Source: Raja brachyura | Taxonomy: Eukaryota | Assembly: GCA_963514005.1 (NCBI GenBank) | Contig: OY740801.1 | Location: forward strand, 23,684,001 to 23,748,000 | Reading direction: 5' to 3' | DNA: 64,000 nucleotides | In this document: piece after piece, positions 2,836 through 56,900 of the stretch | How the letters are laid out: every line of letters begins with the position of its first letter | Position numbering within the stretch: position 1 is the first letter of the stretch | The notes under the pieces: generated by a model | What the model was told of the DNA's origin: nothing | The model's input: the letters and a program-made list of their open reading frames with translations, nothing else | The model's database searches: none | Made by a program: the position numbers and the translations under genes

Positions 2836-5207
2836 AGCTTATGGAAGAAACATTCGGAAACCTAATAACAGAGGGCACAAAGCTATCCCGAGTATGGTGG
2901 TTCATCCTTTAAAACTTCTGTACCTTCTGCTGGACGTGAGCAGAGAAAATGAAGTTTGAGTGGGCTGGACAAGTATTTTTGGCTGTTGTCTGAGGCAATG
3001 TGGAGTATAAATGAAGTCAATGTTGGGAGTCTGGTGTGTGTTATTTACTCACTGCAATTTCTTGCGGTCTTGGGCAGAGCTATTCCCAAACAAAGGTGTG
3101 AAGCAATCTGATACAATGGTTTCTATGGTATATCTAGAAGTTTGTAAAAGTCACTCGAGACGTGCAAAATTTCCTCGGACTCCTCAGGAAGTATACGTAT
3201 TGGGGTGCTGCCACGGCTGTTGCATCAGTGTGGTAGGTGCACAACTGATTATTGGTTATATTAAAGCCATGGAACTTGAAGCAAAAGTCCACAATAACAG
3301 TAGACTCTTCACATGTGGCACGATAGAGCAAATGATCTGGTGTTGTCAAAGGTGTAGCCCACCTCAACTTTGCTCATGCCTCATTATTTACCCATCAGGT
3401 TTTGACAGGACGGGCTGCAGGCATGGAAAGAATAACAAATTTGCCTGTGGGACTAAGATACTGATTGACAAGGTCTGTTTTTTTTTTTGGCACAATGCTG
3501 TATGGCAGTGAAGCTTGGAATATTCAGTGTCCATGGTGTATTCTTGGCCTTTTATGTTAGGTTGTTTTATCCTGATACATTAGATTGGTGGGGACCTGGA
3601 ACACCCAGCCAGGGTTGGTGGTAGAGGCAGATATTGTAGTAGTGTTTAAGTGGCTTTTGGATAGGCACATGAAAGTGCAGGGAATAGAGGGATATGAATT
3701 ATGTACAGGAAGATGAGATCAGTTTATTTTGGCATCGTGTTTGGCACAAACATTGTGGGTTGAAGGGTCTATTTTTGTGTTGTACTGTTTTAGGATGTTC
3801 TATGTACTTTTCAAATGCAGAATTCTCAAGCAACCCAGCACTTACCAGGCAAGAACACCGCACTGGAGTAACTCAGTGGGTCAGGCAGCAACTCTGGTGA
3901 AATGTAATCGGTGAAAGAGTGAAATGTAAAGCTGGAGGGAAGGATAAGTGTGGAATGGCGGAAAGTGATCTGTGGCTTCTTCTGCCGCCATTTCTGCTCT
4001 TGGCTGTGGTTCCAGCGATTAATTTAGGAGAATGTTGGGAATGAAGCTTGTGAGAGTGTGTGTGGTTAGTATATTTTGTGTTTGGTTGACACCATGCAGC
4101 TGGACTCTCATCAGTTATCTGTAAAATAGCTTGAATGTGCCAGTCTGCAGGCAAAGGGGTTTGGCTGTGTTGATTAAAGCAGAAACCCAGGCACTGTTTT
4201 GGTTTATTATTACCGAGATGCAGTGGGCAAAATTTGTTTACGTACATCGATTCAAATCGTACTGCACATGAGTACTATCAAGCCCTGCACTGGTACAACA
4301 GGTAGTGCGTGGAGAAAAATGCTGGAGTACAGAATGTACTATACTTAGTGCGGCACAGTGATGCAATGGTAGAATTGTTCGACCTACAGAGATCATATTT
4401 TCTCAGTTTTTTTCCCCACACTCCAAAGACGTGCAGGATTGTAGGTTAATTGGCTTCTGTAAATTCTAAATTGTCCCTAGTGGGGGTGATGGTTGGTCGG
4501 AATGTAGGATGGGCCGAAGGCCTGTTTCCATGCTGTATCTCTAAAGTGTTAAGACCATTCAGCATTTATGGCATTACATGGAGGCTGGAACAGCTGGACT
4601 ACGCCCTAGATTATGGAAGGATGGTTCAGCGAGGAATAAACTGTTCTTCAATCCGGTACTACATGCTTTCAATTTTTGTATCTTCTGCCCAACAAGAGAG
4701 CAGGGAGATAGACTGACTGGATTGTAAAAGTTCCTTGTTTATGCCGGCAGCATGAAGTTAGATGCAGTTAATTGGGGGAGGGGAGTCTGATCTCCATGAT
4801 GAACTGTGCGACATCCACAAGTCTCCGCAACTCTTACGCCCTTGGGACAGAGCAGCTGCCGAACCATGCAGTGATGCATCCCGATAGGGCACTTTTTATA
4901 GTATGTCTGTAGAAGTTTGTCAGTTGTTGGAGTTCTTTAGTCTTCTGAGGAAGTAGAGGTGTTGGTGTGCTTTCATGGCTGAGGCCTCAATGTGTTTGGT
5001 CCAGGAAAGGTTGGTGATATTTTTGCCTTGGAACTTGAAGCTCTCAACCATCGCCATTTTGGCACCATTGATGCTGATTGTGCCAATTTCCTTGCAGTGT
5101 TATGCAAGTGAAATTCTCCATCTGCGTGAGACTGAGACTGCAGGAAAGTGGCAATGTACCAGGAGTTTGTTGTTAAAAATGAATTAGGATCAGCGTTTCC
5201 ATATTGT

Positions 5208-5376
5208 AGATAGACATAAAATGCTGGAGCAACTCAGCGGGACATGCAGCATCTCTGGAGAGAAGGAATGGGTAACGTTTTGGGTCGAGACCCTTCTTCA
5301 GAGTTGATGGATGAGTTACTCCAACATTTTGTGTCTACCTTCGATTTAAACCAGCATCTGCAGTTCATTCCTACAC
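5208..5376. mobile_element. Short PLE-derived element with 14-bp TSD
   Basis: Partial inverted arms. Minus-strand hammerhead-like core at 5274-5301 with GAAA changed to AAAA. TSD cgtttccatattgt at 5194-5207 and 5377-5390. Confidence 0.8.
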
Positions 5377-7779
5377 CGTTTCCATATTGTGCTGTTGTGG
5401 GTCATTTCATGAGACTGCAGCTGATTGGGATGAGGATAAAAAAATGTAAAATTTTTTTGGTACACAATCTGTACTCCAAATCTTCCATGCGCAGCAGAGC
5501 TCTAAACAACTATGGTATTTTTCTACATACAGTTCGTGGAAAAATGAAGTAGACTTCAGCCTGTAAATAGGTGTGACCCAGAGCTAAAATCAATAAATTG
5601 TTAAAGACCAAAATAGTTATGGAGATGGGTAATATGCTGCTTTGATTAGTCATGGATGTGAGTCAATCAAATCGAGCTCAGTAAAGCATTGTACTTTGCC
5701 CCTGTGATGTATGTTAACCTCTGCCTTTGATTATTCTGTCAGGGTAATATTATTTTCCTTGTTAGGAATTTGAGAGTGCTGACTGATAAAGGAAATAGGA
5801 ATAAAGGAATTTAAATCCATGGTTAGTTAATGGGATTAAGGTTTGGTTGGTCCCATTGGGCAGTTTTGCTCTGCAATCTATGCATTGTCAACAACTAGAA
5901 GGCAGTTCTGTGCTTTGGGCTCATGCCTGTTTGGAGCTGGATCAGATCTCTGGGTGGGGGGGTTGGGCATTTCTACTTGATTGCAGGCCAACACAGCTTC
6001 ATGTAGAGGCTGAAGCTGCTCAGGATGACTGTGTAGACAGTTATTGGTAACGTGAGAAGCAGTGATTTCTTTGCCACTTGCTTACAGGTCACCTAAGGTT
6101 GAGGAAGAGAAACTGAGTTTCAATTTTACTGCTTGTAACATTGCAGTATTTAGGCCCACAACCACCGAGAGGGTATAGAACTGATGTTTTAAATTCCCTT
6201 GTTCTGTCATTTTCTTTTTCTTTGCTACATTCAGATCAACCAAACTGCACACCTACACTTCTGTGTGAGTTAGTGAGAAAGAGACCCTTGAGTAATTTGG
6301 GGCTGTCAGCATGTAAATTTAGGTAAGAGTGTGCATGGACTTGCAGTCATGAATGCTGATTGAAGCTGGCAATTTGTGGTGTTGAACAGGACCGTTTTTC
6401 GATGTTTACTGTGGAACTGCCTTTGGCACACCAAGATATCCCGAATAACAAGATGGCTTCAAGAATACTTTGTTCCGCTGAGATGTAGCAAAGGCCATGG
6501 GTTGCGGAAAGGTAGAATGTTGATCTTGAATGTGATCTTGTCGCAGATTCACTTCTATTTATATGAATTTAAACCTCTGTTCTCGGACACAAATGTTGGA
6601 ACTATCAATACAAAATTGAGTCAGCTACAAATATGAGGCAGTTGAGTCTGGATGTTCCTCTAAACAGCTCCTTCTCTCGTGTCTGTGTATCTCCGCACTC
6701 CCTGTCTTCTATTTTGCAATTTCTTTACAATTTTCCCTTTCCAGTCCGACTTGCCACCTGCTGAACCCTACTTTTTAAAAAAACTTTTTTGTGTTCGTTT
6801 TTTTTGTTGTAGGCTGCACTTATTTTGACTCATCAATAAAATCAGGGACTGAGACAAATACTGGAAGAGTCGGGCAACATCTGTAGTAACAGAAATAGTG
6901 AAGAGTGTTTACCTGTCATGTGTACCGACAATGGAACGGTAGAATTATTTCTTACGCAGCATTACAGGTCCATTAATGCAATAACATAGAAATATATATA
7001 TTATATACAATAACGCCATAAATTAATCGTCAGTAATACTCTGTCAACCTCTGAGTCTGTGAACCTCCTTATTTGTTATCAGTTTTTATCTTTAGTTTCA
7101 GATTTCCTGCATGTGCAGGTTTTCATTTACATAGACAAATTTCTTCTCCAGTTCTGAGGCCTGCCAGTGCACCTCTTGCCCCCTCAAGATTGTGCCAGTA
7201 TGTTTCAAGATGCCAAAAAGAAATACATTTTAAGTGGCATCAGGCTGCATTTGTTGAACCGATTATTGAATCTGATGGAGCAACATCTTTACATCAACAT
7301 TATGGCCAGTTATCTGCTTTGTAGTTTATTGCATTGTGATGTATTGTAGTTACACTTAACTACTATATTTAATTACTTACTGTTACACATTTAAGGGGAA
7401 TAAATGAGTTCTAAAGTGGTTCATTATAAAGGAGCAGCAGTGTGATCAGTGAATGAATGGTGGTGTTCATTATATCTTTGCTTTATAGCCACGAGATGAA
7501 GTTGATCAGCTGTCGAGCATTTTGGAGGCCACTTTAGTTATAGTTTTGTGAAACGAGATAAGTTTGGTTAAGTCGTACAGCGTGTGATCACTTATCAAAG
7601 AGCAATCATGATCAGTGTAGTGTTGAAAGGAGAAATGTGAAACAGCTACCCGGCTTTCTAAACTTTTTATTGTAAACTGTTTTTCTGACCTATTTTCTAT
7701 ATAATGAGGGGGAGAACATTATGATAAATAAAGACAATCTCCTTTGTATGTAACTATTGTAGAGTTGAGAGATGTTTAA

Positions 7780-8270: not shown

Positions 8271-8300
8271 GCTGCTGGAAACCAGTAAAGATTAAAGCCA

Positions 8301-8517
8301 GGGGGTTACACAAAAAGCTGGAGAAACTCAGCGGGTGCAGCAGCATCTAAGGAGATAGGCGACGTTTCGGGTCGAGACCCTTCTTCCGTCTGAAGAAGGG
8401 TCTCTACCCGAAACGTCGCCTATCTCCTTCGCTCCTTAGATGCTGCTGCACCCGCTGAGTTTCTCCAGCTTTTTGTGTAACCCTCGATTCTCCAGCATCT
8501 GCAGTTCCTTCTTTAAC
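8301..8517. mobile_element. Short palindromic PLE-derived element with 14-bp TSD
   Basis: Near-perfect inverted arms of about 85 bp centred near 8388. TSD aaagattaaagcca at 8287-8300 and 8518-8531. Confidence 0.85.
8390..8417 (+). ncRNA. Minimal type-I hammerhead ribozyme motif (putative)
   Basis: CTGAAGA-A-GGGT-CTCT-ACCC-GAAAC-GTC: CUGANGA core, stem II, GAAA, palindromic ACGU stem III, GUC cleavage triplet. Stem I is weak. Confidence 0.6.
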
Positions 8518-11500
8518 AAAGATTAAAGCCAAACCTTTTTAGGAATAAAGCTAGGAAATATTTCTAAAGTGGTAGAAAATCAGAAGTCTTACACAAACAA
8601 TAAACCATAAGTACTAATTTTGCATTAAGAAATGATTTTCATTAACAGATGTTATGAAGAGATATCAAACAATAGTGGATAAATGGAGTGGATGGCAGGT
8701 TTACAGGTTTATAAAATAGTAGTGGGAATACAAGGGGCCAGATACATGCCCTCTGTTGTCTAGTTCTGGTGTGTAGAGCTGTGGCCCGGAGACACCATCA
8801 GGTGAGTGGCTTCCATTTCATCAAATGTTTATAAAACTAGAGAGTTTAATATGTAAAATGTGTAAGCTGGAAGAGGGTAGAAGTGTTGTATGCATTGTTG
8901 TTTGGTCTTTTATTGGCTTGCTGGAACACCACACAAGTCATGTTTTGATAAAGGAAATAGCTTGTCTGGTTTTATGGTTTCGCTATTGCTGTGGAAGTAC
9001 CATTTCACTTGTTCAACTTGTTCAACACTTCACAGGCTTGGTTCCTCTCCTCTAATAATCCATGTGGCTGAAATAATGAACAAATAGATTCTATCGATAC
9101 AGCACCTTTACTGTGTGTCTGAGGAAGAGGAGGGAGGGGGCACCTACAGGAATGTTATTGTTGAATATTAGTCCACTTCTGATCGTCAGCAATGTGATAT
9201 CGAAGTAATCTCCAGTGCCCATGTGGGTGTTTTGCCTGAACTACGCAGCTCCAACCAAGGCTTTAGCACAGCCTCAGACCAAAGATCGGCCAAAGAGCTA
9301 AGTTCCAAAGTGAGTAAAGTGTGAGCACTTGAATATGTGTCATGGAGCCATGGGAAAGTGAAGATTATTGGGTATCAAAAGAGAAGCTCTCCACAGATTA
9401 GAGCTTGACCTTTTGGTTAGAATACTGCATGCAGCTATGGTCAACCCACTGCAGGGAGAATGTGATAGCATGAGAACGGGTGTGGAGCAAATAACCAGGA
9501 TGTTACCAGGGAAGGAGAATGATGGTTATGAGTAACTTTAGGTTATTGTTTTCTTCACAACAAAGGAATATATGTTTTGGCAGGTTTAGCTGAGAGTGAG
9601 AGTGAAATGGAGAGCTATTTCCCTTGGAGAGATCCTATGCTGGGGACACATTGAACTTGGGCAGTGGACCGAGGATGAAAGATTGACCATAGCTGATGGG
9701 GAGTAGAATTGTGGATCTCTGCCCCGAAAGGGTTTGGATGCAAAGCACTTCAGGGCAAGATGCCTGTGTAATCTGAAACTGGTAGGGCTCTGGACAACGA
9801 GCTAGCAACTAGGGTTACCTTGAATAACATGCCTTTCACGCTGTATAGATGTTGTGGGCCTTCTAGGCTCCTTTAGGAGCCATTGGTTGTATCATTCCCA
9901 CGTGGGAGGCAGTATGCAGTTTTGATGGCTCAGAACGTTTCAGCCGACCCAGTCTCTGCTTGTAACGCAAGCCGTCCAGTCCCAGCAACATAAACATCCA
10001 AACCAAACAAAACGTCTTTGTGATTCTTTTCTGCATCTTCCAGCTTCATTGTATCCTTCCTATATTGCACATAATATTCCAGGCTCGGTCTTGCCAAAAT
10101 CCTATGCAGCTGTGATATGATGTCTCAACTCTTGCACTCAGTTATCCTGCCCAGTTAAAGCAAATGTGCCAATACATCCTTCATCTTGTCTAGCTGGTCA
10201 GAACTGTGCAGGAACTCTGTATTTGTCCCCCTAGGTCACTGTTCTACAACGCTCCCAGGTCCTGTCATTGCCTGTGCAAGTTCAGCTACAGTTTAACCTC
10301 CCCAAATGCATCATTTCACATTTGCCCGAGTTAAATTCCATCTGCCATGCCTTTGCTTATTTTCCCAGTTGATTTAGGGCATATTGTGACCTTCGACAAC
10401 TTTCCCCACTGTCCACCACATTGCAGAGAAATGGATAGGATGGTTTTGGAGAAATACGAGCCAAATGCAGGAAAATGAGACTAGCTCAGGCAGGCAGGCA
10501 CCGTGGTCAACATAAATGAGTTGGACCAAAGGGCCTGTTTCTCTGCTGTGCATCTCCAAATCTTCTAGGAAACATTGAGAATGTATTTTCATAAAGTGGC
10601 AGTTCTTTCTGAAACTTTGGTATCCAAAGCAAAGTTTCTTACCCCAATGTATAGCTGATGAATGACTACAAACACTGGCCCCATAGCAGAAGGGTCCATG
10701 TCGCGAGGCTGGAAACTGGAAGTATCTTGAGTTAATTCTGCTACCACCGTCATCTATTGCAACAAGTGATGGCTCCCACTGATTGTCGCCGGAAGCTTGC
10801 ATCCTTTTCAGGACGGACGATGACAGCGAATTCAACATTTGAAACATGGGAGATGGTTACAAAAGAAGACGACTACAAACACTAAACTTATTTTGCTCTC
10901 TGCAGTTGATCTGAGTATTATAACTGCAGTTTTTCAGACTAGAGTGTTCATTTCCTATCTCATGTGTAATTCGCACAGACCACATACTGTGATCATTTCA
11001 CTCTGCATGAGATTAGCCCAGCTTCTCAATTGCCTGATGGCTGAGAAATGACCAATGGTTGTGAAATGCAACTCTCTAGTTTGTAAATAACACTTGATAT
11101 GCAGAAGTTGCACAATGTTATAAATAGCTTTGGGGAGGAAAGGAGGGTTTGAGTATTGTATGTATGTCCATGCTTGAGAATCTTAACATGGCTCACTATT
11201 CTTTTGTCTTGGCACGTTAAATTTTCTTGACTCCTAATGTATTTTTCGTCTCATCTGTATTGCAATGCAACTACTTTTTAATTGTGGTATTTTGGGTAAG
11301 GCCAGCATTTATTGCCCTGGTGAAAATGTTAATATGCTACCACCACAAACTGCTGCAGTACTTTGTAGAACCTTCGGCAAGACTGCTGTTGACTCGGCAG
11401 TTGCAGAAATTAGCAACAATGATTATATTTTCAAATTTATCTACAGTACATGTGATTGAGCACTTGGTATTCCTATGTTATTCTATTATGCTCTTCCAAG

Positions 11501-12528: not shown

Positions 12529-13264
12529 GCATTTTCAGAGGGCTTGACGGCCAAAAGCTCCAATATTTACTATAATTCAGAACGGGGAGCTGAGGCCTCA
12601 CAATCCAGACTTTGCACCATTTGATGAGGATACCAGCGTAGTGTAGTTGTGCTTCTGATGCTGTTCGTGATGTGCAGTCCCTAAGCTTGGAAATGCTCCC
12701 CTGCCAAGCACTGTTCAACTAGGTGGCTCATGTCTAGTGGCTCATGTTGAACTCCTTTTTATCTAATGGTGTTCTATTGTCATCTTCACCCTCGGAACTA
12801 ATTTAATCGTCAACGTGAGCAAGATCCCAGAAATGTTGAGTAAGCTTTGCAGAAGACGGATGCATGTGATTCTGTAATCTAGCCAAATCTTGTTCTGTGA
12901 GGCCTCTCTGGTTTGTATTCAAGGGATGGTTTAGACAGCACTAACATGGGCTGTTTGCTTTGAGCTACATTGCCATGCCAAGTGAGTAAGAACAGTCTGT
13001 GCAAGTGAGAGGTTTTCTGATGACGGCATGGTGGTATTCAGCCTGGCCCCTAAACTCTTCCCACGTTTGCAATGCACTCTGAGCTGTGCAGCATTCAAGT
13101 AAGAAGGGAAATTTGCTCCCCGTTTGATGTAAAAAGGAAATAAGGTGGTGTTAACCCTCAATTGAAAAAAATAGTTTCATTTCAGACTCCTTTCTGGCTA
13201 TGGGTTAAGTGTTTGAGTTTTTCAAAATGCCTGACTGAATCAAAAGCTGGAGTGCAATCATTAG

Positions 13265-13398
13265 GGGTACACAAAAGGCTGGAGAAACTCAGCGGGTGCA
13301 GCAGCATTGTCAGTGTACAGTACAGAGACAACGAAATGCATTGGGAGATAGGTGACGTTTCGGGTCGAGACCCTTCTTCAGACTGGAATGCAATCTTC
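13265..13398 (-). mobile_element. Short PLE-derived element with 14-bp TSD
   Basis: TSD agtgcaatcattag at 13251-13264 and 13399-13412. Single arm, interrupted by about 37 nt of foreign sequence. Confidence 0.75.
13354..13381 (-). ncRNA. Minimal hammerhead ribozyme motif, intact core (putative)
   Basis: Reverse complement reads CTGAAGA-A-GGGTC-TC-GACCC-GAAAC-GTC. Confidence 0.6.
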
Positions 13399-14905
13399 AG
13401 TGCAATCATTAGTATGGAGCATTGTAAGTGGTGTAACGTTGGTACGATTTGTTTGATTCCTCTCTTGATATAGTTTGAATTGCAAGGAGGTCAACACTTC
13501 CCTTCTCTCTCTCTCTCTCCTTGTTTCTGCTGCCCCCTTACCCCAGCCAGTGTCAGTGAGGTCACATTCACACTGAACTCTTCTGCTAAAACGCAGATTT
13601 ATCCAGGCGTGTTGGGGTGTACCCACTGTTTTGTGGTTTGTCACTCCAGGATGTTTTTTAAATTGCAATTGAAGATGGTGGCTATTCCTCTTGAATTGTT
13701 TTTTACTCTGGTTCCACAATTTTTTGATTAACATTTTTTCATTTGGTTCATTCTCCAGTTGGCTTAAAAAATATTAAATCTTCATGGATGTGTGAAGGTG
13801 GTGAGTGGATGAGTAAATTAAGGAAAATATGTTGGGATTGCATATCCTTCATACATTTTAACCATGAGTTTATCCATGTGTACATTTAACTAAATGTTAC
13901 CTGCTCAACACCATGTTGACTCAGCGCCTTGGCAGGGGTTGTGACATTGATCCAGTCCTCAGAGTTAAAGTGAAATCTTAACGAATTGTGCAGTCTGCAT
14001 GCACAATGGATAGTTTTTCAAGATCTACTCCAGACCATATTGAGTCATACGAGTAAAACTGGGGCAGTATGGTAGATGAATGACCCCAGCTTTCTGACAA
14101 AGATTTTCAGCTTTTGGATATGGTCAGGATCAATAACATATGTTGCAATTCTTGCAGAAATTTTAGAATAGTTGAGTTGCATAGCACAAACAGGCCCTTC
14201 AACCACTATGTCTATGCTACCCATCATGCCTGCTGTACTAATCTCACGCCTGCATTAATTCCATATTTCTCTATGCCTTGCTCAATTATGTGCCTGTCAA
14301 GATGCCATAAATCTTGCTGATTATCTCAAAGTTGTGACCGGGTATTTGCTCGTTCCACTTGTATTTCAAGTGTTCCAAAATTCCCCAAAACGTTGCCTCC
14401 ATATTTTGTCGAACCTCAACTTTTAAGTCAACTACAGGTCATCCTCAGATTACATATCTTGTATACATGGGAACAAGTGTTTGGGAGACACATAGTGGAT
14501 TTGCTGGCTACTACCGGGCTGCTAGCATCTTCTGCCATGTGGGAATTTGGTTAATAGTAATATCTGACTGATTGAGTTAACACCTTGGTTACCCTTTGTT
14601 GCGCTATGTTTTTAAATCTGTAACCGGACGACTGCATTTCCAATTTGCAACCTGTTTAGATTATGAACAGCACTCGGGAAGACACTTCATGTGGAGGATG
14701 GTGTTGCCTAATCTCTATTCTCTAGTTTAAATCTTCCCAAACTCATCTGAACTTGCTAATAAGAACCACCCATTGTAGTTTAAGGCACTGTTTAAGAGAT
14801 ATGCATTATCCTGCATAATGTACTTTGAGAAGTTTTTTGAATGATTCTCAATAGCTCAGCTTGCTCTCTGGATAGCTCCATACACTTAATGTTTGTTTCC
14901 CCCAG

Positions 14906-14996: not shown

Positions 14997-17900
14997 GTAA
15001 GTGCCTGGAGATGTCGAATAATTCTAGCTCATCGCCACATTCTTCGGGAGTTCTGATAATCTGACGGGTTACTTAGTATATAAAGAAAGGAACAACCCAC
15101 ACTATCAACCTGTTTTGGATGATGTCTTTCCTGTCTGGCAGCTGCTGCGATACTAACAAGTGCCTGTTGTGAACAGAGACCTGACGGTCCTCTGTTAGGG
15201 TTAGAATTTGCTCACTTGCCCTTCTCCCTACCTGCTACAGCAGGGCCCAATTAATCAAGCTTAAAAACATGCCTTAGTGTGTGGCAAGCTCAGGAGGTGG
15301 GGCAGTATCTGATGTACAGTTATTGTTCCGGTTCAGTAATCTTTCATCAACTGTGTCAGCACTAAACTGGTTGTGGTAGAAAAAGGAGAGGAAAGAACGG
15401 GGTGGAAGATCTATGATTAAATGACAGAAAGAAGACAACCAAAACAAATAGGTTTAAAATCATGATCTAAATTTTCTGGTTCTGATGAAAGTTCATTGCT
15501 CTGAAATGTTTAACTGTGTTTCCCCCTTTCCAGGTGCTGCATTTTCAGTTTTTGTTCCAGATTTGTTATGTCTGCAGTTTGTGCCTTGTTAATTACTTTT
15601 GAGCAAACTAGGTAACACAGTGGTGCAGCAGGTAGTTCCAGCAATCTAGATTCAACCCTGACTTTTGATGCTGTCTCTTTGGAGTTTGCAAGTTCTCCCT
15701 ATAGAAATTTAGAAAAATAGGTGCAGGATTAGGCCTTCCAATATGATCATGGTTGGTTATCTAAAACCAATATCGCATTCCTGCTTTATTCCCATATCCC
15801 TTGATTCCTTTAGCCCTTAGAGCTAAATCTAACTCTCTCTTGAAAACATCCAGGGAATTGGCCTCCACTGCCTTCTGTGGCAGAGAATTCGACAGATTCG
15901 CAACTCTCTGGGTGAAGAAGTTGTTCCTCATCTCAGTCCTAAATGGCCTACCCCTTATTCGTAAACTGTGACCCCTGGTGCTGGATGCCCCCAACATCAA
16001 GAACATTTTTCCTGCATTTCGCCTGTCCAATCCTTTAAGAATTTTATATGTTTGTATAAGATTCCCTCTCATCTGTCTAAATTTCAGTGAATACAAGCTC
16101 AGTCGACACATTCTTTCATCATATGTCAGTCCCGCCATCCCGGGAATTAACCTGGTGAACCTACGCTGCACTCCCTCAATAGCAATAATGTCCTTCCTCA
16201 AATTAGGAGACCAAAATTGCACACAATACACCAGATGCAGTCTCACCAGGTCCCTGTACAACTGCAGTAGGACCTCCTTGCTCCGAAATTCAAATCCTTT
16301 TGCAATGAAAGCCAACATGCCATTAGCTTTCTTCACTGCCTGCTGTACCTGCATGCTTATTTTCAGTGACTGATGTACAAGCACACCCAGGTCTCATTCC
16401 ACCTCTAATTTGACACCATTCAGATAATAATCTGCCTTCCTGTTCTTGCCACCAAAGTGGATAACCTCACATTTATCCACATTATACTGCATCTACCATG
16501 CATCTGCACACTCAGCCAACCTATCCGTGTCACTCTGCAGCCTCATAGCATCCTCATTGCAGCTCACACTGCCACCCAGCTTTGTGTCATCAGCAAACTT
16601 GGAGATATTACATTTAATTCCCTCGTCTAAATCGTTAATATATATTTTAAATATCTGGGGTCCCAGCACCGAGCCTTGCGGTACCCCACTGTTTGCTGCC
16701 TGCCATTCTAAAAAGGACCCATTAATTCCTACTCTTTGCCTCCTGTCTGCCAACCAGTTTTCTATCCATGTCAATACTCTACCACCAATACCATGTACTC
16801 TAATTTTGCAAGCTAATCTCTTGTGTGAGACCTTGACAAAGGCTTTTTGAAAGTCCATATAAACCACATCCACTGGCTCTCCATGATCCATTCTACTTGT
16901 TACATCCTCAAATAATTTCAGAAGATTAATCAAGCATGATTTCCCCATCATAAATCCATGCTGACTTTGACTAATCCTGTCACAGCTTTCCAAATGTACT
17001 GCTATAACATCTTTAACATTCGACTCTAGCATCTTCCCCACTACCGATGTAAGGCTAACTGGTCTATAATTCTCAGGTTTTTTTTTTCTCTTGCGCTCAC
17101 ATTGGCTACCCTCCAGTCCACAGGAACTGATCCAGAGTCGAGAGAACATTGGAAAATGATCACCAATGCATCCATGATTTCAAGGGCCTGCTCCTTGATG
17201 CAGACCATCAGCCCCAGGGGATTTATCTGCCTTCAGTCCCATAAGTTTACCTAACACCAATTCCTGACATGTGAATTCCCTTCAGTTCCTCCCACCCACT
17301 AGATCTGCGGACCCCTCGTATTTCTGGGAGATTGTTTGTGTCTTCCTTGGTGAAGACAGAACCAAAGTACTTGTTTAACTGTTCTGCCATTTCCCGTTTC
17401 CCATTATAAATTCACCTGTACACACAAAATTCTGGAGTAACTCAGCGGGACAGGCAGCATCTCTGGAGCGAAGGAATGGGTGACGTTTCGCATCAAGACC
17501 CTTCTTCAGACTGATCAGTCTGCATTTTGTGTCTACCTTTGATTTAAACCAGCATCTGCAGTTCTTTCTTACACATAAATTCACCTGTCTCTGATTGTAA
17601 GGACCTACATTTGTCTAATCTTTTCCTTTTTACATATCTTTACAAAGAAGCTGTTGGAGTCTGTTTTTATATTCCCCTCAAGCTTCCTTTCATGCTCCTT
17701 TCGCCCCCTCTTAATTAACCCCTTTGTCCTCTTCCGTTGAGTTCTAAATTTCTCCCAGTCCTCCGGTTATTTGCTTCCTCTGGCCACTTTATATGCCTGT
17801 TCTTTGGATTTAACACTATCCTTGGTTTCCCTCGTCAGCCACTGTTGAGCCGCCTTCCCCGTTTCATTTGTTTGCTAGACGGGAATTAACAATTTTTGGG

Positions 17901-41900: not shown

Positions 41901-44900
41901 AGTGAATCTCCACTTGGAGCAGGTTACTGCTACAGGACAAGTAGGCAGAGGTAGTGAAAGTCAAACTTGATGTGTATTGATGGCAGCCACCAGGCTTCCT
42001 GCCTTAATTTATTGAGTGCCAGAGTTTATTGCCTTGCGAGTCACTGTCTGCTGCTTCTTTTCACAGGTACAAAGGCGCATTGGTCATGTTACTGACTGAG
42101 GTCTTGCATCGTGTACAGTTCCGCTACAACCAAGCGCAGCTTGAAGAACTTGATGATGAGACACTGGACGATGATGTGAGTGAACCAGGGTGCGCAGTGT
42201 TGTTCAGCTGTTCAAGTTGTGTTCAACTGTTCCCGCAGTTGAAGTTGTTCTTGTGAAAGAAACAAGACCTAATCTAGCAAAACACAGTGTTGGAGGAGCT
42301 CAGTGGGTCAGCAGCATTTGTGGAGGGAATGGTCCTGACCCAAAACGTTGTCTGTCCATTTCCTCCACTGATGCTGCCTGACCTGCTGAGCTCCTCTTGC
42401 ACCAGATTCTAACATCTGCACTTTATTGTGTCTCCTAATATAGAAAGTTTCTCAAAGAAAATTTGTTTATTTTTATAAGCAGCTTCCCATCCACCCACTG
42501 CCAATCTATGCAGGAAGATAGATGTACAGTCTGTGCTGGGGTGGTTTTTAATCTTTGCATGCTTGTGTAACCTGACCAGCATCTTGTTAAAGTTCATTTT
42601 GACACACACACGTTCCAGTTTCAGTGGGACTGCTGGCATTCTGGTGTGTGAGTTCAGCTTCTTCCAGGTTTAGGTTTGTTGTTGTCACGTGTACCCCCAA
42701 GGTACAGTGAAAATAGTTATTTTGCATGTTATTAGATCAGATAATACTATACATAAACACAATCAAGTCAAACTCAAGAACAACAAGTAGAGAAAAGGGA
42801 AAGATACAGAGTGTAGAATATAGTTCTTAGCATTGTAGTGGTTCAGTTCCATAGACAAGGTCAAATGTCCATTATGGGGTAGAGGTGAATTGGGCAGTAC
42901 CCTAGCTTATTTAAGGACTATTCAGAAGCCAAGCAACCAACAGGCTTGAGGAGCTGTCTTGTCTAGTGCTGCTCCGGGGTTTAGGTGTCAGCTGGATGTA
43001 GCCATCCCTGAGTATTTGTTTTCTGGGCTCGGGCACTATTACTACTGAGTCAAGTTGGGTCCTGCTGGGGTTGCAGTAGTTAAAAGTAGAAGGTGTGGCA
43101 GCAGGTTCGCATTCCAAGATATTTGATGCCTGTGGCAGTAATAAATTGAGCCAGTAATGTGGATCAGACATTGAGACTTGTGATTCCACTAAAAAGTGAG
43201 CCCTGCACACTCTACCTGTCAGGTGATTTTGGCCAGCAAAGAGTTTAGTATTAATTCTGAAGGCATTGAACTGTGTCACGAAAGATCTGCACGGTGACTG
43301 AATATTGCAACACTCTTGCCTGTGTCATTCTGAATTCCTCCCAGAAAATAGGACCTGCAGCCACATGAACAACAGTTGGCTTGGTTGGAAGAATGTAGGC
43401 ACAAGGAACTGCAGATGCTTGTTTACTAAAAACAAACAGTGCCGGAGTAACAGCGGGTCACGCAGTGTCTTTGGAGAACATGGATAGGTGACATTTCTGA
43501 TCTGAAGAAGGACCCCGACACAAAATTATGCCAAACCATGTTTGCCTGACCAGCTGAGTTACTCCAGCACTTTGTCTTTTTTGTTCAGTAGAATTCTACA
43601 GTGCATTTCCTGATTAGTGTACAAGAGTCAGCAGTATGCTTAATGTAGTCACTGTGGCAGGAAATGAGGGAGCTATTTTGTACATGAAGCTCCCTCACCC
43701 CATTGGGGCTGCCTGTGGGGTCTGAGGATGTTCATCAGCTTTACCCTTTGCTTGCAGCAACAGACTGAGTGGCAGCGTTACCTGCGGCAGAGCTTGGAGG
43801 TGGTGGCCAAAGTGATGGAGCTTCTCCCGTCCCACGCCTTTTCTACAATCGTAAGTAGCATAGCGGAATATTGCATTAACACACCAACCCCAAAGTTAGC
43901 CATGTTTTCACTGTAATCTCTGTGTTAGCTGGACAGAGCCACCCCACTCCCCACACCATCCGGGTTGGGACCACCCCACAGGATGTAAAGCAGAGCAGAA
44001 ATAGACCAATGGTTCTTGAAGCCTGCACTGGCAATCATTAATGTCTTGGCTGTGCCACCACTTTCCAGCTCTTGTGCCTACCCCTCAAATCCTTTGTGGA
44101 CCTCAGTGAGTGGATAGGGCCACTGTCTCACAGTACCAGAGACCAGGGTACAATCCTGTCTGTGTGGAGTTTGCAGGTTCTCTCTGTGACCACGTGAGTT
44201 TCCTCCCACATTCAAAACGCGTGCAGGTTTGCAGGTTGATAGGCTTCTGTAAATTGTCCCTAGTGTGTAAAAATGTATTGGTGTGTGGCGTGGACTTTGT
44301 GGGCCTCACAGGGCCTGTTTCAACGCTGTATCCCTAAATCAAACTGAAGTTAGATGAGTTCCCAGGGTCTGTTGATTGTTTAAAAAAATTCATCCTGTGC
44401 ATCATCTATTGGACTAATGGACTGTGGTCCCCCAGGGGATTGAAACTGGCCTTGGTTTAACTATGCATTGGTGATGTGGGCTGACTGGGTCTGGCAGTCG
44501 TCTTGTCCATCATTGTCACGGGGATCAATCTAACTTCCCAGAGTTGAAAGACGCTTGACTCGCCGCTCCACAGTCCCTGCGATAAGATTAAGAATGGGCG
44601 GTACTTGTACTAAAATTCCTCAATAGTTTTTGAGCTGCTTTCATTGCTTTCTGTCCCTAGTTTCCCATCTTGCAGGATAACCTTGAAGTTTACCTGGGTT
44701 TGCAGCAGTTTGTTGTCACCACTGGACAAGGTAAGTGGCTGGACTGCTGCTAACATGTAACTACAACATTGATGTTGGCTTTTGTAAGAAACATCTGTAA
44801 ATATGAAGATATTTAACCTTGTAATCACTAGAATTATAAAATGTTAATGCTGCAAGAAAAAGAGGCAAAATGCTGGAGAAACTCAGCAGGTCAGGCAGCG

Positions 44901-47900
44901 TTCATGGAGAACGTGGATCGATGACGTTTCAGTTCAGGACGCGTCTTCACCCGAAAAATCACCTATCCATGTTATCTAGTGATGCTGCCTGACCTCCTGA
45001 GTTACTCCACTTTTTTTTGCAGACCAGCACTTGTGGTTCTTTGTTCTATTTATTGCTGCAAGAAGCTAACTTGTTAAAAAGTGATGTTAAATTTGCCACA
45101 ATTTGAGCAAGTGAATATAAAAGGAGTTGAAATGCAAGCACTCTTAGAGAAACGTGTTCTAATCTTGCATCTGTTTTAGGTAGATTTGTAGACTAGCTGT
45201 GGTTACGCTGATTAAGGAGACTTGATGCAATATAAGCACACCTATAGCATTTGAGACAAAGGCATGGAATTGTTTAGCACAAAAATAACTCTGACCCAAC
45301 TCATCCATGCCAAGCGTGGTGCCTGTCTACACCAATCTAATTTCCTGCATTAGACCCGTATCCCTCTAATCCTTATCCATGTACCAGTCCAAACCATTTT
45401 TAAATATTGTAATTGTATCTATCTCTACCACCTCCTCTGGAAGCTGATTTCACATTCCCACCACCCTCTTTGTGAAAACACAACCCTTGGATTCCCTTTA
45501 AATTTATCGCCTTCTATTTTAAACCTATACTCTAGTTTTAAACTCTTACATTTTGAAAGAGACTCTGGCTATCTACCTTATCTACACCCCTCATCATTTT
45601 ATACACCCCAGCCTTGTACATTCCAGTGAGCATAAACCTAGCATTTACAATCTGTCCTTATGACTGCAGCCACCTTTGCTGGCAGTACTGTGGTGAATGT
45701 TTTCTGCACTTTCTCTGATGCTACACCCTCCTTCATGTAGTGTGGTGACCAGAACTGTGCACAATATTTGAGTACAGCCTGATCAAAGTTTGGTGCAGCT
45801 GCAACATGACATCCCAACTCTTATTTTGGTTTGGTTTATTATTATTCTTGCATGTCACTATCACCGAGATAGTGAAAATGCATACCACACGAGTAGTATC
45901 AAACCACACATGACTACAACAGGTAGTGCAAAAAGAGAATGGAAACAGTACAGAACATAGTATTACAGTTGCAGAGAAAGTGCAGATAACAAAAATGCTG
46001 GGGCCGCAGTGAGGTAGATTGGGCGATCGGGAGTATATTCAGTGTTCCGGGGGCAAGCATGCTGAATGCCCTCATTACTGCCCTACTACCTGTGTAGTCA
46101 TTGGCGAGCTCAGACTGCATGGTGTGTGCAGGTTTGATTGCTCAGCTATAGGAAGAACATCATTAAATGGAAATGGGTGGCGAAAAGTCTCGCCTGGATG
46201 TTAACTGAGTGTGCGGGCTTGTTATAGCAAGAGGTTGGATAGCCTTGGATTTTTTTCTTTGGATTGTAGGTGGTGACCTTATTATGGTACACAAGATCAT
46301 GAGGGGCATGGAGAAAGTGACCACTCTGTCTTTTTGCCAGGATTGCGGATTCTAAAATTAGAGGGATTTGGCTTAAGGTGAGAGGGGAGAGATTTAAGAG
46401 GGACCTCGGGAACAATTATTTCACTCTGAGGGTAGTCCATATCTGGAATGAGCTGCCAGGCGTTGCTATAGAAATGAACACAATTATGTCTTTTAAACAA
46501 TGGTTTGATATATGGATAGGAAAGATTTAGAGGGCTATGTGACGAGCCCAGCAGGCCAAATTGGGCCAAAGGTCCTGTTTCTATGCTATAAAACTCTGTG
46601 CATATTTACTGTGCATGTCTTGTTAGCATTTGTCATCCCAAAACTGCATTATTATCTCCCTGATTGGATTATATGCCAACTGTCACTGCTCTGCCCAACT
46701 TTCAAACTGATCTATGTGCCACCTATCCTTTCACAACCTCCTTCGTTGTCATCTACTCCAATCATTTTTGTGTTGTCAGTAAATTTACTAAACTGTCCGG
46801 CTGCCTTCTCATCCAAGTCATTTTGTTAAACAATGGTCCTAGCAGTGATCCCAGCGATACACCATTGGTGTAGGAAATAACTGCGGATGCTGGTTTAAAT
46901 TGAAGGTAGACACAAAATGCTGGAGTAACTCAGCGGGACAGGCAGCATCTCTGGAGAGAAGGAATGGGTGACGAGTCGGGTCAAGACATCACCAGGTCCT
47001 TCTCTCCAGAGATGTAGAGATGAGTTACTCCAGCATTTTGTGTCTACCTTTGAGATACATAATTGGTTACAGACTTCCTGTCTTGACCATCTGAACATGG
47101 AGATTCGTGTCCATGAACCAAAACGTCACCTGTTCATTTTCTCCAGAAATGCCTGACCCACTTAGTTGCTCTAGCAGTTTGTGTCTATCTTCCAATCTCT
47201 ACCACTGTCCTTGTCTTCCTACCACCAATTTGGATCCAGTTTGCCTGCACACCTTGTCACAGTCCATCATCGGTTATACCAGTAAGTGGGGGGGGAAACA
47301 AAGGGCGTGAATGGTTGTATTGGTGAGATGAGAATGTCATCAATATCTCCTCACAAGGACCTGGTGACTCGGGTAGTGGTTTCGACTGAGATTAGTTGCA
47401 CATTGCGGCACTGGCTATAGTGATGGCAAAGGTGCAGGGCTTTCCCCTCGCTTGGACTGATGTATATGCGCAATGGCTTAACGTGTGCCTTGGTGTTTCA
47501 TCACAGATGCATTGTTCTTTAGTTCACAGACTGAATATCACAGCAGAGAATGACTGTCGCCGTTTGCATTGCTCGTTACGTGATCTCAGCTCGCTCCTTC
47601 AGACCAGTGGTCGCCTGGCAGAGTATTTTATTGGGGACGTATTTGCTGGCAGATTTAATGATGCGCTCAGAGTAGTGGAAAGGTAAGACCTATTTAAATT
47701 GCTAGCTGAGTGCTTCAATAGTTGCTGGATCAATGAGATCTTGTGTGCTGTTTATTTCATTTTAATTGTTGCTAAAAATTTGGCGGGGAAATAACAATGT
47801 TTAGCAAATACTCAGCTAGTAAGAATTTCAAGGTCAGTTTATTGTCACCTGTACCAAGGTACGGTGAGATTTGAGTTATATTACAGCCGTACTAAGTGTA

Positions 47901-50900: not shown

Positions 50901-53900
50901 AGGGTGATGAGCAAACTGACCCTGCTTTGTTGGCCAAGTATTTATTTGTTCAATTGACATTTCCAGAACAGATTAACAGTTAATTTTTCTTTTGCCCTCG
51001 GTTTTCTGGTTTCCTCACACATCCTAAAGAAGTGTGGGTTAATTGGCAGCGTAAACCACCACGTGCGTGTGGGAAGAATTGTATAATTTTGGGGTAGAAC
51101 AACGGATGGGAATGTGGGGGGTATAAAACCGATTGTGTGAAAGTGGGTGTTTGATGGTTGGCAGAAAGGGCTGTTTCCATGCTTCATTGCTCTGACCTTG
51201 GGTTAGCGTTGACGATGGCTCTTCTGGCAGTGCCGCAGCAGCTCATTACTTACTTGAACCCCCACTGTGGTCATCTCTACAATGGAACTCAACCTGCCAG
51301 CCTCCGACGGGGATGTGCTGCCCACTGAACCACCCGTGAGCACAGGGTTGTGTCGACTTGCACGTATGATGAAGACCAGGTCAGGGTAGAAGTCCCTCGG
51401 CTGCCTTCACCCAGGGTCTGTGTGGACTCGGAGTGGAGTTGGGGCCTTTCATGAATCTGCTTTACAAATCCTTATGGTTGAACTACTGGTCTTGTCTTGC
51501 AGCCACGCACAGTCACTGGCCGCGTTGCAGGCCTACGCCCATTGGCTGGCTCAGTTTTACAGCGAGGTTCAGCGGCAAAACCCAGAGCAATTTGTCTCTC
51601 TCATCTCCACTGCTATGGAAGCCACTGCTCCCCTCATCAGCACAAAGGTATGTCAGCAGCGTCACTGAACTCTGACAACACACAGAGCAGGTGCTCAATG
51701 AACCAACACTTTCATGGCTACTCAGCTTTTTTTTTTAATTGCTATTTTTAAATTTTAATTAAAATTAAATTTCCCTTGCTGCCATTGTGGAATTTGAATT
51801 GTGTCTCTGGAGCGGATATTGAGAACTCATACACCAGTGCAAGACTGCGTGAGATTGCCTTGTTGAATGGGGCGGTGAGGGGCATGCGCCAGAAAGCCTT
51901 ATGTTCCACATTGAGTTGTCTCGGCAGGTGCCAGAGAAGCTGCTGCTCTCAGCGTGCCATCTGCTGCTGTCGTTGGCCACTACCGTACGGCCCGTCTTTC
52001 TGGTCAGGATACGAGCCGTGCAAAAAATCTTCGACAGGATCACCGACGGCTCTGCTCGCCAGCTCCCCCAAGAGGTAGGTGGGAGAATCTGACGAGCTGC
52101 TCAGAATGAATTGGCAGAACTTGGCTGAATCAAAACTGCTCACTAGGCATGTCACTGATAAAAGATAAAAGATGCTATCTGTCAAAGGTTCCCAACTGCT
52201 CCGTACAGCTGTTTGTAAACTTCAGGATATAACCTTGGCTATCTGAACACAAAATGTATTTGTGTAGGAAAGAACTATGCCTGCCTCTTTGTAGGGTACG
52301 TCGAACAATCACTGTTCCAGGCGTACACTGACCCTATCCACGAACTCTACCTCTTCTACATTGATGACTGCATTGGTGCTACCTCCTGCATCCATGCAGA
52401 ACTCACTGACTTCATCAACTTCATGACTAATTTCCATCACAGGAGACATACTATTGACCGGCATCTATTACAAACCCAATGACTCCCATAGCTATCTTGA
52501 CTAAACTGCTTCTTGTAAAGACTCTATTCCCCCAACTCCCAATTCCTCCATCTATGCCGCATCTGCGCCCAGGATAAGGTTTTGCATACCAGGTCATCAG
52601 AGATGGCCTCATTCTTTAGGAAACGGGGGTTCCCATCTTCCATTATAATTGAGGCTCTCACTAAGGTCTCCTCGATACCCCGCAGCTTCGCTCTAGCTCC
52701 CCCTCCCCCCATTCGTAACAAGGACCGAGGCACCACCCCCCCCCCCCGTCCCGTCCCGTCCTCGCCTTCCACCACCCAATCAGCCATTGCATACAGCATA
52801 GAATTCTCCAACGTTTTCGCCAATGGGATCCCGCTACTGACCTATTTACTGGTTGCTCAGCACTTTAACTCCCCCTCCCATTCCCAACCTGACCTTTCTG
52901 TCCTGGGCCTCCAATGTCAGAGTGAGGCCCAGCGCAAATTGGAGGAACAGCACCTCATATTTTGCTTGGGTAGCTTACACCGCAGCAGTATGAACATTGA
53001 TTTCTGTAACTTCAAACAGTCCTTGCTTTCCCCCTCTATCCCCTCCACCTTCCCAGTTCTCTCACCAGTCTTACTGTCTCTGACTACATTCTATCTGTCC
53101 CGCCCACTCCCCTGCCATCAGTCTGAAGAAGGGTCTCAATCCGCATCGTCACCAATTCTTTTCACCAGAGATGCTGCCTGTCCCACTGAGTTACTCCAGC
53201 ATATCGTGCGTACAAAATGTATGTATTCAGTTCAGAGATACACCTTGGAAACAAGCCCATCGAGTCTGCACCAACCACTGATCACTCATTTACACGCTAA
53301 TTTTATGTTATGCTACTTTCCATCCACTCCCTGCACACTGGGGGAATTTATAGGTGGCCAATTAACCAACACCTGCATGTCTTTGGGATATGGGAGCAAA
53401 CCAGAGTACCCACAGGGAACTCACACGGTTATAGTGAGAACATGCAAACTCCACACTGACAGCATTCAAGGTCAGGATTGAACCTGGGTCTCTGGTGCTG
53501 TGAGACAGCAGCCCTACCTGGTACTGTTGATTTGGTTTCTGGTTATGATGCGAGGATTGTAGTGAGACGAGTCACCTCTGCTGTTTGGGTATACGTGTGT
53601 AACTGGGTTGATGCTGTGCTTCCCCCCCCCAGGGTAAGGTACTGGTGTGTCGGGCCTTGTCCAACATGTTGCTGCTACCGTGGCCAAACCTCCCTGAGAG
53701 TGAGCAGCAGTGGGCTGGCCGTTCTACCAATCATGCCAACTTAATATCCACCCTCACCAGAGAGTATCGGCAGCTGAAGGACAGTGCGGGACTGTCGCAG
53801 AACAAAGTGGCTCTGGGGGCCAGTGAGTATATCCCTGCACCTCTCCTGTATGTGCTGGATTTAAATCCCTCTGCAGCCATTTCTGCCCTACTGCTTGAAC

Positions 53901-56900
53901 AGTGCGCCGTGTCGAGAAATACACAAGTTCTTCCTGTAAACAGCAAACCCATTGAGGAAACATGTTCAAATCTTTAATAGCAACAGGATGAATCAGAAAC
54001 AGGAAGCGCCGTGTAATGCTGGAGTGCAAGATTTCTGGTGCCACGAGTAACCTTGAACTTGGGCTGTGCCTTATCACAGCCTGGCACTGATTAATTGCCT
54101 TGGGCATGAGGGTACAGGCAAACAGTCCACCACCAACGTTAAATGCTCTTTTCTTTTGAGGCATTGGTGAACATTCAGCAGTGGTTACAGCTGAGTTTCT
54201 AGGATGTAACTATTTTGCATTTATTTAATTGTATAAATTATCCCTGTGTGTTTCAGCAAAAGCAATTGTGCAAGACACGCTGAGCATCCTGAGGTACATC
54301 GTGGAGAACGTGTCTGGGGAGGTGACCAAATCCCGCCAGATCTGCTACCAGTCCCTTCAAGAGTCGGTGCAGGTCTCCCTGGCCCTCTTCCCAGTCTTTA
54401 TTCACCATCCGGGTACGGCAGTCTTTAGTTTACAGAGATAAGACCAGAAAAGGTAGAAATACTCGCGTTGTACGGCATCTGTGGAAAGAGGAATAGTTCG
54501 GGTTTAGATCAGTAACATTCCTTCAGAGCTGAGCAAAGTCAAACATACCTCAAGTTACAGAGGAGGGTGGAGGGGACAAAGGGATACATGTGATGGGAAG
54601 GAGGCCACGAGAGAGTGAATGACATGAGTGGGGGCAGGTGATCTGTCGGGGATTGCAAGTAGGAGACAGATGCTGCCTGACTTGCTGGGTGTTTCCAACA
54701 CTTTCTGCTTCCAACGTCTGCAAATTTTTGCCACTTACTTACATGTACTTGAGGTTCAGTGAGCAGCGCTACCCGTGGCTTCAGGGGCACATTGTTTGGG
54801 TTCCACTTGCAATCTGCCTGGAACTTCCTCGAATGAGATGAGGACATAAGGAACTGCAGATGCTGCAATCATGAAACGTAAAATGCTGAAGCAACATCTC
54901 TGGCGAGCATGGATAAGTAATGTTTTGGGTTGCGTCTGAAGAAGGGTCCCGGCCCAAAACATCACCTCTCCATATTCTCCAGAGACACTGTCTGACCCAC
55001 TAAGTTGCTGCATCACTCTGTTCTAATGGTGAATGTGGGTGTTACGCCCCCAGCTTTGGCGTCGTCCCACTGCCCAATCAGATCAAGTAAAGGATCCAAC
55101 TAAATTGCATCCCATCTGACCCGCCACAAAGATGCATTGCAATTAAATCGATACTGAGAGTGGTAGGTTTTTGTTGGCTAACTGTTATAGATTTGGAATA
55201 AAGGTACGCAAGATAGGTTTGGTTAAAGACCAGCCAGTTTAATATCAGTTAAAACTAGAACCTCCTGGTCCTGTAATTATGACCCCGAGTACCACCAGTG
55301 AGGAACATGTTGTCGGGTGTTCCCTTCACAGGAGGTTGGTTCCTTCTCAATCACATAACATGGTATCCTGACTTCATTCTTATCGGGGGTAGACAAAAAT
55401 GCTGGAGAAACACAGCGGGTGAGGCAGCATCTATTCCTTTGCTCCATAGATGCTGCCTCACCCGCTGAGTTTCTCCAACATTTTTGCCTACCTTCGATTT
55501 TTTGCAGCATCTGAAGTTCTTTCTTAATCATTCTTATCGGGCGTTCCTTCTTACCAGTGAGGTACTCTGCCAGTTATCAACCTGCTTTGTCTTGCAGGAC
55601 TTCTAGGGCTGAGGTGCCTGACTGATATCCAGTCTTATAGTAACTTGCACGGTGGCGCAGCGGTAGAGTTGCTGCCTTTCAGTGCTTGCATTGCCAGAGA
55701 CCCGGGTTCGATCCTGACTACGCGAGCTGTCTGTACGGAGTTTGTACGTTCTCCCCGTGACCTGTTTGGGTTTTCTCCGAGATCTTCAGTTTCCTTCCAA
55801 ACTCCAAAGAAGTGTAGGTTTGTAGGTTAATTGGCTTGGTAAATGCAAAAATTGTTCCTCGTGTGTGTAGGATAGTGTTAATGTGCGGGGATCACTGGTC
55901 GGCGCGGGCCGAAGAGCCCGTTTCTGAGCTGTATCGCTAAACTAAACTGCAAGATGTGTTATGTAGTTTTGTTTTAGTGATACAGCATGGAAAACGGTCC
56001 TTCCGCAAACCGACTATCGATCACCCATTCACACACATACTATGTTAAACCACTTTCTCATCCACTCCCTTCACACTAAGGACAATTTACGGAGGCCAGA
56101 TAACCTACAGACCTACGCGTCTTTTAGATGGTGGGAACTGGAGTACCCGTAGAAAACCCATGCTGTCACAGGGAGTACGTGCACACTCCACACAGTCAGT
56201 CCCCAAGGTCGGGATTGAACTCTGGACTCCAGTCCTGTGAAGCAGCGGCTCTATTGGGGCTTGGAAGGTGGGCTGGAGGTGTGCGGGAGCCACATTTGGT
56301 GAAATCCTGCTATCTCACGTTCCATAAGAAATAGTGCATTGTTTAATATGTTTTCAAGGATACATCTGGGAATACTGGAATATCAGTACTTTTGTGATTG
56401 GCATCTGTAAAAATGTCAGAAAGTGGGTAAAGCTGATCAAATCTCCGTGACATTAAGTTGTGGTTGCAACTTTAATTCCAATTACCTTTTACGAGCACGG
56501 ATTGACGCCATGTAGCATGAGTCCACCCATGGTAGATGTGTGGTGTCCTACTGTTCCAACTGGGTGCAGGCTGAAGTTGTCCCCTCTCCCTTCCAGGTAT
56601 CACAGATGAGATGCTCAGCTTCTTCCTCACTTTGTTTCAAGGCCTCAGGGTGCAGATGGGAGTTCCCTTCACAGAACAGATCATCCAAACGTTCCTCAAC
56701 ATGTTCACCAGGTAAGTGGCCTTGTCGACGTGAATGGTGAGACCCTGGGCTTTTAAAGATGGGTTGTGGAGTTCGTTCGCTCGTGTGTCGGACGATGTCG
56801 CTCGCTGTTGGCTTCTGTCATCGTCCAACATGTGGACAGAATTGTCGCCCGATGCATCACAGAGTGTATCGTGTTGTCGCTTCCACGGATCGCCACAAGG

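Follow-up and report, generated by a model that had tools for sequence, protein, structure and literature searches.

A near-fixed 13-14-bp target-site duplication around inverted insertions of a GIY-YIG Penelope-like element in Raja brachyura

How does a retroelement come to be inserted with the same end facing the target on both sides, and within duplications of nearly one length? The question is raised by a 64-kb stretch of the Raja brachyura genome (GenBank assembly GCA_963514005.1, contig OY740801.1, positions 23,684,001 to 23,748,000, forward strand; hereafter the window), in which short inserts of a Penelope-like element (PLE) are bounded by direct repeats. These inserts bear on how PLEs cut the second strand and come by their inverted, one-tailed ends. 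We mapped the family by BLAST and profile searches to 25 loci and compared their boundaries with 600 mismatched flank pairs as a null; in this test, repeats shorter than about 10 bp are indistinguishable from chance.

A boundary repeat was present at 10 of the 25 loci (B, C, E, F, W, Q, P, I, T and N in Table 1). Its length was 14 bp at six loci, 14-15 bp at one and 13 bp at three. An earlier note on this DNA had reported five perfect 14-bp target-site duplications (TSDs), and each proved to be an exact 14-mer, extendable at neither end. The three imperfect pairs that it added are also real, at 44844/45050 (14-15 bp, one mismatch), 46856/47054 (14 bp, two mismatches) and 30834/30975 (13 bp, one mismatch). 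The repeat at N, which was not among its pairs, is borderline (null p=0.028). One null flank pair scored 32; it is likely the nested pair formed by insert I and the older copy H. A candidate at locus X (p=0.028) was dropped, as it spans 23 nt with six mismatches and lies 20 nt off the boundary. The targets are indeed unrelated to each other, as had been claimed: they have no common motif and are mildly AT-rich (66% versus 56% window-wide).

An unbiased scan of the whole window for maximal exact direct repeats at 40-1500 bp spacing, set against Markov nulls, returned 8 exact 14-mers where 0.65 were expected. Five lie at family-insert boundaries, where about 3e-5 would be expected over the 25 loci; two (60220/60879 and 60260/60915) come from the homology of family copies to each other, and the eighth (19311/20122) runs across a host exon; for this last pair the TSD reading was dropped and the match taken as chance. 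There was no excess at length 10 (103 versus 104 in the null) or 11 (22 versus 29.4), and a mild one at lengths 12 (15 versus 9.1) and 13 (5 versus 2.25), partly made up of repeat-internal matches. The TSD feature is real.

Twelve of the inserts have two arms, laid out so that both outer ends are 3' ends of the element facing the target, and an end may carry an optional tail of about 35 nt; a tail-less end stops about 35 nt before the tailed one. In all eight repeat-bounded two-arm inserts (B, C, F, N, P, Q, T and W) one end is tailed and the other tail-less, an outcome with a probability of 0.5^8 = 0.004 if the ends chose independently (the tail state of C+, F+ and T- was read from the alignment instead of the tail-scoring script). 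Of the other four two-arm copies, three old ones agree with this pairing and O is ambiguous. The tailed arm can stand on either side, B having an inverted tail-less arm on the left and a direct tailed arm on the right, and Q a tailed arm on the left and a tail-less one on the right. In five inserts (B, P, T, O and V) no arm is contained within its partner: T pairs a tailed arm of 15 nt with a tail-less one of about 935 nt, and each arm of B, P, O and V holds sequence missing from its partner. The inner junctions show microhomology (W, 4 nt), filler (B, Q and D) or, once, a palindrome (F, 16 bp). Several TSDs overlap the element end by about 2 nt, as expected from primer-template pairing. In the young inserts C and W the arms are 97% and 94% identical, respectively, which suggests a single RNA template for both arms.

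The duplication length is narrowly set. A fit that allows for chance extension, made on nine loci, gave a mean stagger of 13.5, with a true stagger of 13-14 nt and a standard deviation (SD) below about 1 nt; an SD of 1 fits 2.2 log units worse than the best value, and an SD of 2-2.5 fits 6-7 worse. The pattern holds with J and N added. A likelihood for a strictly 14-nt stagger was set aside, as it ignores terminal mutation. The repeats of I and T are 13 bp rather than decayed 14 bp, because the bases just outside the 13-mer are the element's own on both sides. The honest statement is a TSD of 13-14 nt with a mode of 14; of the fixed 14-nt stagger proposed earlier, the narrowness stands, but the length is 13-14, sometimes apparently 15, and not exactly 14.

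What sets this length? Measured from a fixed landmark in the element, the tail-less end (site 1) wanders over 11-22 nt and the tailed end (site 2) over 11-13 nt, while the TSD stays at 13-15; since the element-side end wanders at constant repeat length, it is on the DNA side that this length is determined. It is also constant over about four sequence subfamilies, judged by eye from the alignment. The one-arm copies at 13251 (E) and 30834 (I) have TSDs of the same length, 14 and 13 bp, so the narrow stagger is independent of the two-arm structure. At I, excision of the insert with one repeat copy leaves a sequence that aligns unduplicated with other family members, a surrogate empty site. In idealised B-DNA, with a groove offset that we assume, a 14-15-nt 3' stagger would place the cut phosphates on the same helix face, about 48-51 Å apart.

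Table 1. Repeat-bounded inserts of the PLE family and coding remnants of copy T
Feature	Position	Strand	Description
B	5194..5390	.	14-bp perfect TSD, 5194-5207 / 5377-5390; two arms
C	8287..8531	.	14-bp perfect TSD, 8287-8300 / 8518-8531; near-symmetric two arms
E	13251..13412	-	14-bp perfect TSD, 13251-13264 / 13399-13412; single tail-less arm
F	17406..17588	.	14-bp perfect TSD, 17406-17419 / 17575-17588; two arms
I	30834..30987	-	13-bp TSD, 1 mismatch, 30834-30846 / 30975-30987; single tailed arm
J	31424..31564	+	single tail-less arm, 31466-31561; ambiguous repeat, 31424-31437 / 31551-31564
N	42268..42446	.	13-bp repeat, 2 mismatches, 42268-42280 / 42434-42446; old two-arm copy
P	44844..45064	.	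14-15-bp TSD, 1 mismatch; two arms, older subfamily
Q	46856..47067	.	14-bp TSD, 2 mismatches, 46856-46869 / 47054-47067; two arms
T	52249..53224	+	13-bp TSD, 1 mismatch, 52249-52261 / 53212-53224; two arms
PLE reverse transcriptase core (YIDD motif) and thumb, broken	52276..52730	+	frameshifts, stops; protein matches
GIY-YIG end piece	52843..53022	+	51% match to C-terminal part of P0007 endonuclease region
3' pseudo-LTR arm of T	53115..53211	+	decayed hammerhead core; same sequence family as short inserts
W	55374..55541	.	14-bp perfect TSD, 55374-55387 / 55528-55541; two arms

The identity of the family comes from insert T, which the earlier reader had overlooked. T (52262-53211, 950 bp) consists of a 15-nt inverted tail end and a 5'-truncated, internally deleted PLE remnant with pieces coding for the reverse transcriptase (RT) and the end of a GIY-YIG endonuclease (EN). 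The RT piece has 18 protein matches at 56-71% identity, including shark proteins that carry RVT_1, and is 57-66% identical to named shark proteins. The catalytic half of the GIY-YIG domain is absent from T. Among nine full-length relatives that we scanned, seven have RVT_1 and GIY-YIG and two have GIY-YIG only, several of these matches falling below the curated cut-off. The pattern of a predicted minimal hammerhead core is intact in four family copies, among them C (at 8390, + strand), and has one further match outside the family. In the window Rfam gave no family at threshold, and by E-value only hairpin-type matches; a direct Pfam search missed the PLE pieces of the window. One homolog search came back empty, and a protein atlas gave only unnamed clusters.

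These sequence features support a GIY-YIG PLE as the family, an origin that the earlier note had proposed and that the RT and GIY-YIG pieces of T and their relatives bear out. Because T joins these pieces to the shared terminal arm, we call the element Poseidon-type, a provisional label that rests on domain order and anatomy. To judge from the same terminal arm in T, the RT/GIY-YIG relatives and the hammerhead core, the short inserts are severely 5'-truncated PLE copies, not a separate miniature inverted-repeat transposable element (MITE) or short interspersed nuclear element (SINE). The family combines a PLE-type RT, a C-terminal GIY-YIG, a minimal hammerhead in the pseudo-long terminal repeat (pLTR), and 5' truncation with inverted pLTRs and tails, the hallmarks of endonuclease-bearing (EN+) PLEs. 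No tandem array of the family, as would mark a retrozyme, was found in the window, where the copies are solitary or form inverted pairs. The long interspersed nuclear element (LINE) L1 primes at poly(A), whereas the junctions here end in AC-rich element sequence without poly(A), unlike those of LINEs and SINEs mobilised by an apurinic/apyrimidinic-type endonuclease (APE), whose primed end has a 3' tail of poly(A) or a simple repeat.

We consider it fairly probable that the GIY-YIG/RT protein makes a coupled double nick 13-14 nt apart and that both 3' ends prime complementary DNA (cDNA). The element's protein would nick both target strands in one coupled step, leaving 13-14-nt 3' overhangs, and each free 3' end would prime reverse transcription on element RNA. 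Of the two primers, one would use site 2, at the tail end, and the other site 1, about 35 nt upstream, and the two short cDNAs would be joined head-to-head by microhomology or repair synthesis. A single successful priming would yield a one-arm copy with the same duplication. The least certain step is what sets the spacing, which may be a protein dimer on a single RNA. We entertain only tentatively the fuller scheme, in which a PLE dimer bound to a single RNA nicks both strands in concert, 13-14 nt apart, and reverse transcribes from the two nicks simultaneously, with one subunit using the start site at the tail end and its partner the internal one. If true, this would be an obligately two-ended target-primed reverse transcription (TPRT), explaining together the tail, the inverted pLTR and the transposase-like fixed duplication. 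A dimeric double cut had been suggested in the earlier note; the two-arm anatomy fits priming from both strands, but the dimer itself is no more than plausible, one-arm copies having TSDs of the same length. The idea draws on a dimer predicted for a lizard relative, the Anolis carolinensis Poseidon protein PAc (Frangieh et al. 2024, PMC11167929; this and the other sources cited were available in part, and statements about them refer to those parts).

Several explanations compete with a coupled double nick. That the repeats are chance matches or pre-existing is scarcely credible, given the excess of exact 14-mers, five of them precisely at element boundaries, the minute expectation over the 25 loci and the surrogate empty site at I, even though that site is not orthologous and N and J are borderline taken alone. 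Only slightly less remote is a MITE-like DNA transposon that has terminal inverted repeats and owes its fixed duplication to a DDE transposase. Short inverted-repeat inserts within a near-fixed duplication do look MITE-like, but in every bounded two-arm insert the tail sets one end apart from the other, the inner junctions vary and one-arm copies carry the same duplication; the idea is largely refuted by T, an RT/GIY-YIG remnant that terminates in the same arm and has a 13-bp repeat. A more serious contender, although unlikely in our view, is a single protein acting by sequential TPRT. In this scheme, which does without a dimer, a first nick and its cDNA would be followed by a second nick at a preferred, not fixed, offset set by the protein's footprint, as in L1, the second arm would be owed to twin priming of the L1 kind or to another molecule, and the narrow spread would be partly a small-sample or detection bias. 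Against it, the arms of an L1 twin-primed insertion do not overlap, whereas those here overlap in sequence; the strict tail/tail-less pairing needs coordination of the two ends; and an SD of 2-2.5, our stand-in for L1 and not L1 data, fits the nine loci 6-7 log units worse. For sequential TPRT speak the one-arm copies with their equal TSD lengths and the fact that short TSDs would go unseen, as do the variable second-strand cleavage of PLEs in a review (Craig et al. 2021, PMC8557442) and L1 itself, whose duplications peak at 14-16 bp and span 10-17 bp in culture (PMC2912911), against 13-15 here. The contrast drawn earlier with variable-length TSDs of APE-type elements was, given this L1 peak, overdrawn.

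Fold-back self-priming is improbable, if less so than a MITE. Here the cDNA or antisense template would fold back to give the inverted arm and the EN would resolve it at the tail; the TSD would come from target cuts and only one end would be target-primed. Self-priming was proposed for a rotifer Penelope (PMC3846280), EN resolution of the tail has been suggested (PMC8557442), and the palindromic junction of F speaks for it. However, the very unequal arms of T, the arms of B, P, O and V that each hold sequence missing from the other, inner junctions that are mostly microhomology or filler rather than palindromes, and extension of both strands by PAc in vitro (PMC11167929) argue otherwise. Fold-back explains F, but T, B and P only with later deletions invoked.

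Several points weigh against a coupled double nick. The sample is 10-11 loci from a single window, and 14 of the 25 family loci have no detectable repeat. These are mostly decayed, at 69-83% identity to the nearest copy (a range that leaves out locus K), with one 52-nt fragment at 90%, and we assumed that decay accounts for the missing repeats; a search for distant second repeat copies at these 14 loci found only scattered two-mismatch 13-mers, taken as chance. The empty-site evidence at I is a within-family surrogate, not an orthologous site. The perfect palindrome of F is what fold-back would leave, and later deletion in unstable inverted repeats could mimic arms neither of which contains the other. 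In older inserts the arms are 65-76% identical, no closer than to other copies, so that a single RNA template is indicated only for C and W. The same-face geometry applies equally to L1, and a dimer is not required for a peak near 14, given the human L1 peak at 14-16 bp. Finally, because rotifer TSDs are 8-10 bp or none, 14 is not general to PLEs, and any fixed length would be family-specific.

A few copies have features of their own. In E (13247-13430), the junction filler resembles target DNA, matching the left-repeat sequence (13247/13383, 12/13), and a 36-nt internal extra starts like the right flank (13303/13418, 12/13); these matches to its own target may be signs of template switching to the target. 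The right arm of F has an internal deletion. I is nested in the older copy H (30775-31103) and the mismatch in its TSD is CpG-type, while Q adjoins copy R, the two lying within 46856-47192; a young copy inside or beside an older one would fit homing into the family's own pLTR. The repeat of J is ambiguous, being 14 nt with one mismatch and overlapping the element end by 11 nt. J ends in 11 nt that match a site lying 31 nt upstream of its start; either it was inserted where the target was homologous to the end of the element, or the match is a remnant of an older copy. In C the tail (8387-8517, arm and tail) resembles a degenerate repeat of the preceding segment. Both start sites come after a CCAGC box and terminate in an AC-rich motif; a single RNA could in this way offer two sites for binding. 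A conserved 8-bp arm-tail stem (86% paired) is not claimed, as covariation is lacking. A protein of the rhodopsin receptor family, P0021, has a C-terminal stretch 75% identical to the end of the element's EN region, probably because its gene model extends into a PLE copy.

The window resembles cartilaginous-fish intronic DNA, and its closest named protein matches are from sharks. Exportin-like host exons lie at 19611-19793, 35905-36381 and 61562-61966 on the + strand, with a weak Xpo1 match; most inserts are probably within introns of this gene, which we take to be XPO6. Two-arm copies such as C, if intronic, would form RNA hairpins of about 90 bp. CR1-like LINE (RT) fragments (2210-2861, 15648-17179, 47916-48517 and 50230-50579) had no detected long flanking repeat, and 25 intervals of non-PLE control repeats gave no convincing duplication. 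The single interval above the null (44092/44295) was rejected, its right copy lying inside a SINE-like body, and 14-nt repeats with one mismatch occur 14 times per window by chance. The control is weak, because its boundaries come from self-BLAST and the copies are old. Pattern scans of a bacterial and archaeal genome collection for more copies found none. At 10664-10883, a 13-bp exact repeat (15 bp with one mismatch) surrounds 194 bp that are unrelated to the family and single-copy in the window; this may be another element's insertion or captured sequence, or the repeat may be due to chance (expectation, about two such 13-mers).

The natural copies in a shark or ray genome, which number in the thousands, would allow a purely computational test of these ideas, and if both ends are primed from a defined staggered cut, the mechanism would be relevant to RT-based gene insertion tools. 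In the literature accessible to us, which also included PMC2377424, PMC8969392, PMC12910113, PMC5718144 and PMC12602865, we found no report of a fixed or 13-14-bp TSD for a PLE, or of both start sites serving the two ends of one insertion; Repbase or Dfam notes, figures, subscription papers and preprint supplements may record such a TSD.

Like human L1 TPRT and twin priming, the family combines a duplication peak near 14 bp with inverted insertions and microhomology joins; L1, in contrast, uses an APE endonuclease with a TT/AAAA preference and has a broader range, with shorter duplications in truncated copies (PMC2912911). Its hammerheads resemble the minimal PLE type, with a minimal type I core that has one additional base ahead of stem II and lacks loop 3 (PMC4209133), and occur, as in PLE hammerheads and retrozymes, as dispersed single motifs or as close opposite-strand pairs from truncated PLEs (PMC4209133; bioRxiv 10.64898/2026.07.22.740005). 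Unlike non-LTR retrozymes, the copies here are not tandem arrays; TSD lengths are not reported for them in the accessible parts of these two sources. Penelope of the rotifer Adineta vaga shares inverted pLTRs within a TSD, an optional 31-bp tail and head-to-head junctions, but its TSDs are 8, 9 or 10 bp or none, and fold-back self-priming on an antisense template was proposed for it (PMC3846280). With canonical EN+ PLEs the family has in common that insertions are 5'-truncated, carry a truncated copy in inverted orientation at the 5' end and often have the tail at just one end (PMC8557442), so that element type, inverted arms and one-ended tail were already known; TSD length is described there as variable, and the near-fixed stagger seen here, with its SD below about 1, is a modest new point relative to that review, resting on one window. 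The closest parallel is PAc, which likewise joins an RT to a C-terminal GIY-YIG and has a hammerhead in its pLTR; it also shares an optional tail of 30-40 nt, bracketed by two RT start sites that lie in AC-rich sequence. A preference for ATT, as PAc has, is not seen in the 14 nick contexts of this family. The purified protein cuts and extends both strands and starts reverse transcription at two sites that bracket the tail, and the available part of that paper reports no TSD length, nick spacing or link from start site to insertion end (PMC11167929). A 13-14-nt stagger with strict tail/tail-less pairing makes sharp predictions for PAc in vitro, for the spacing of its nicks and for the start site used on each strand.

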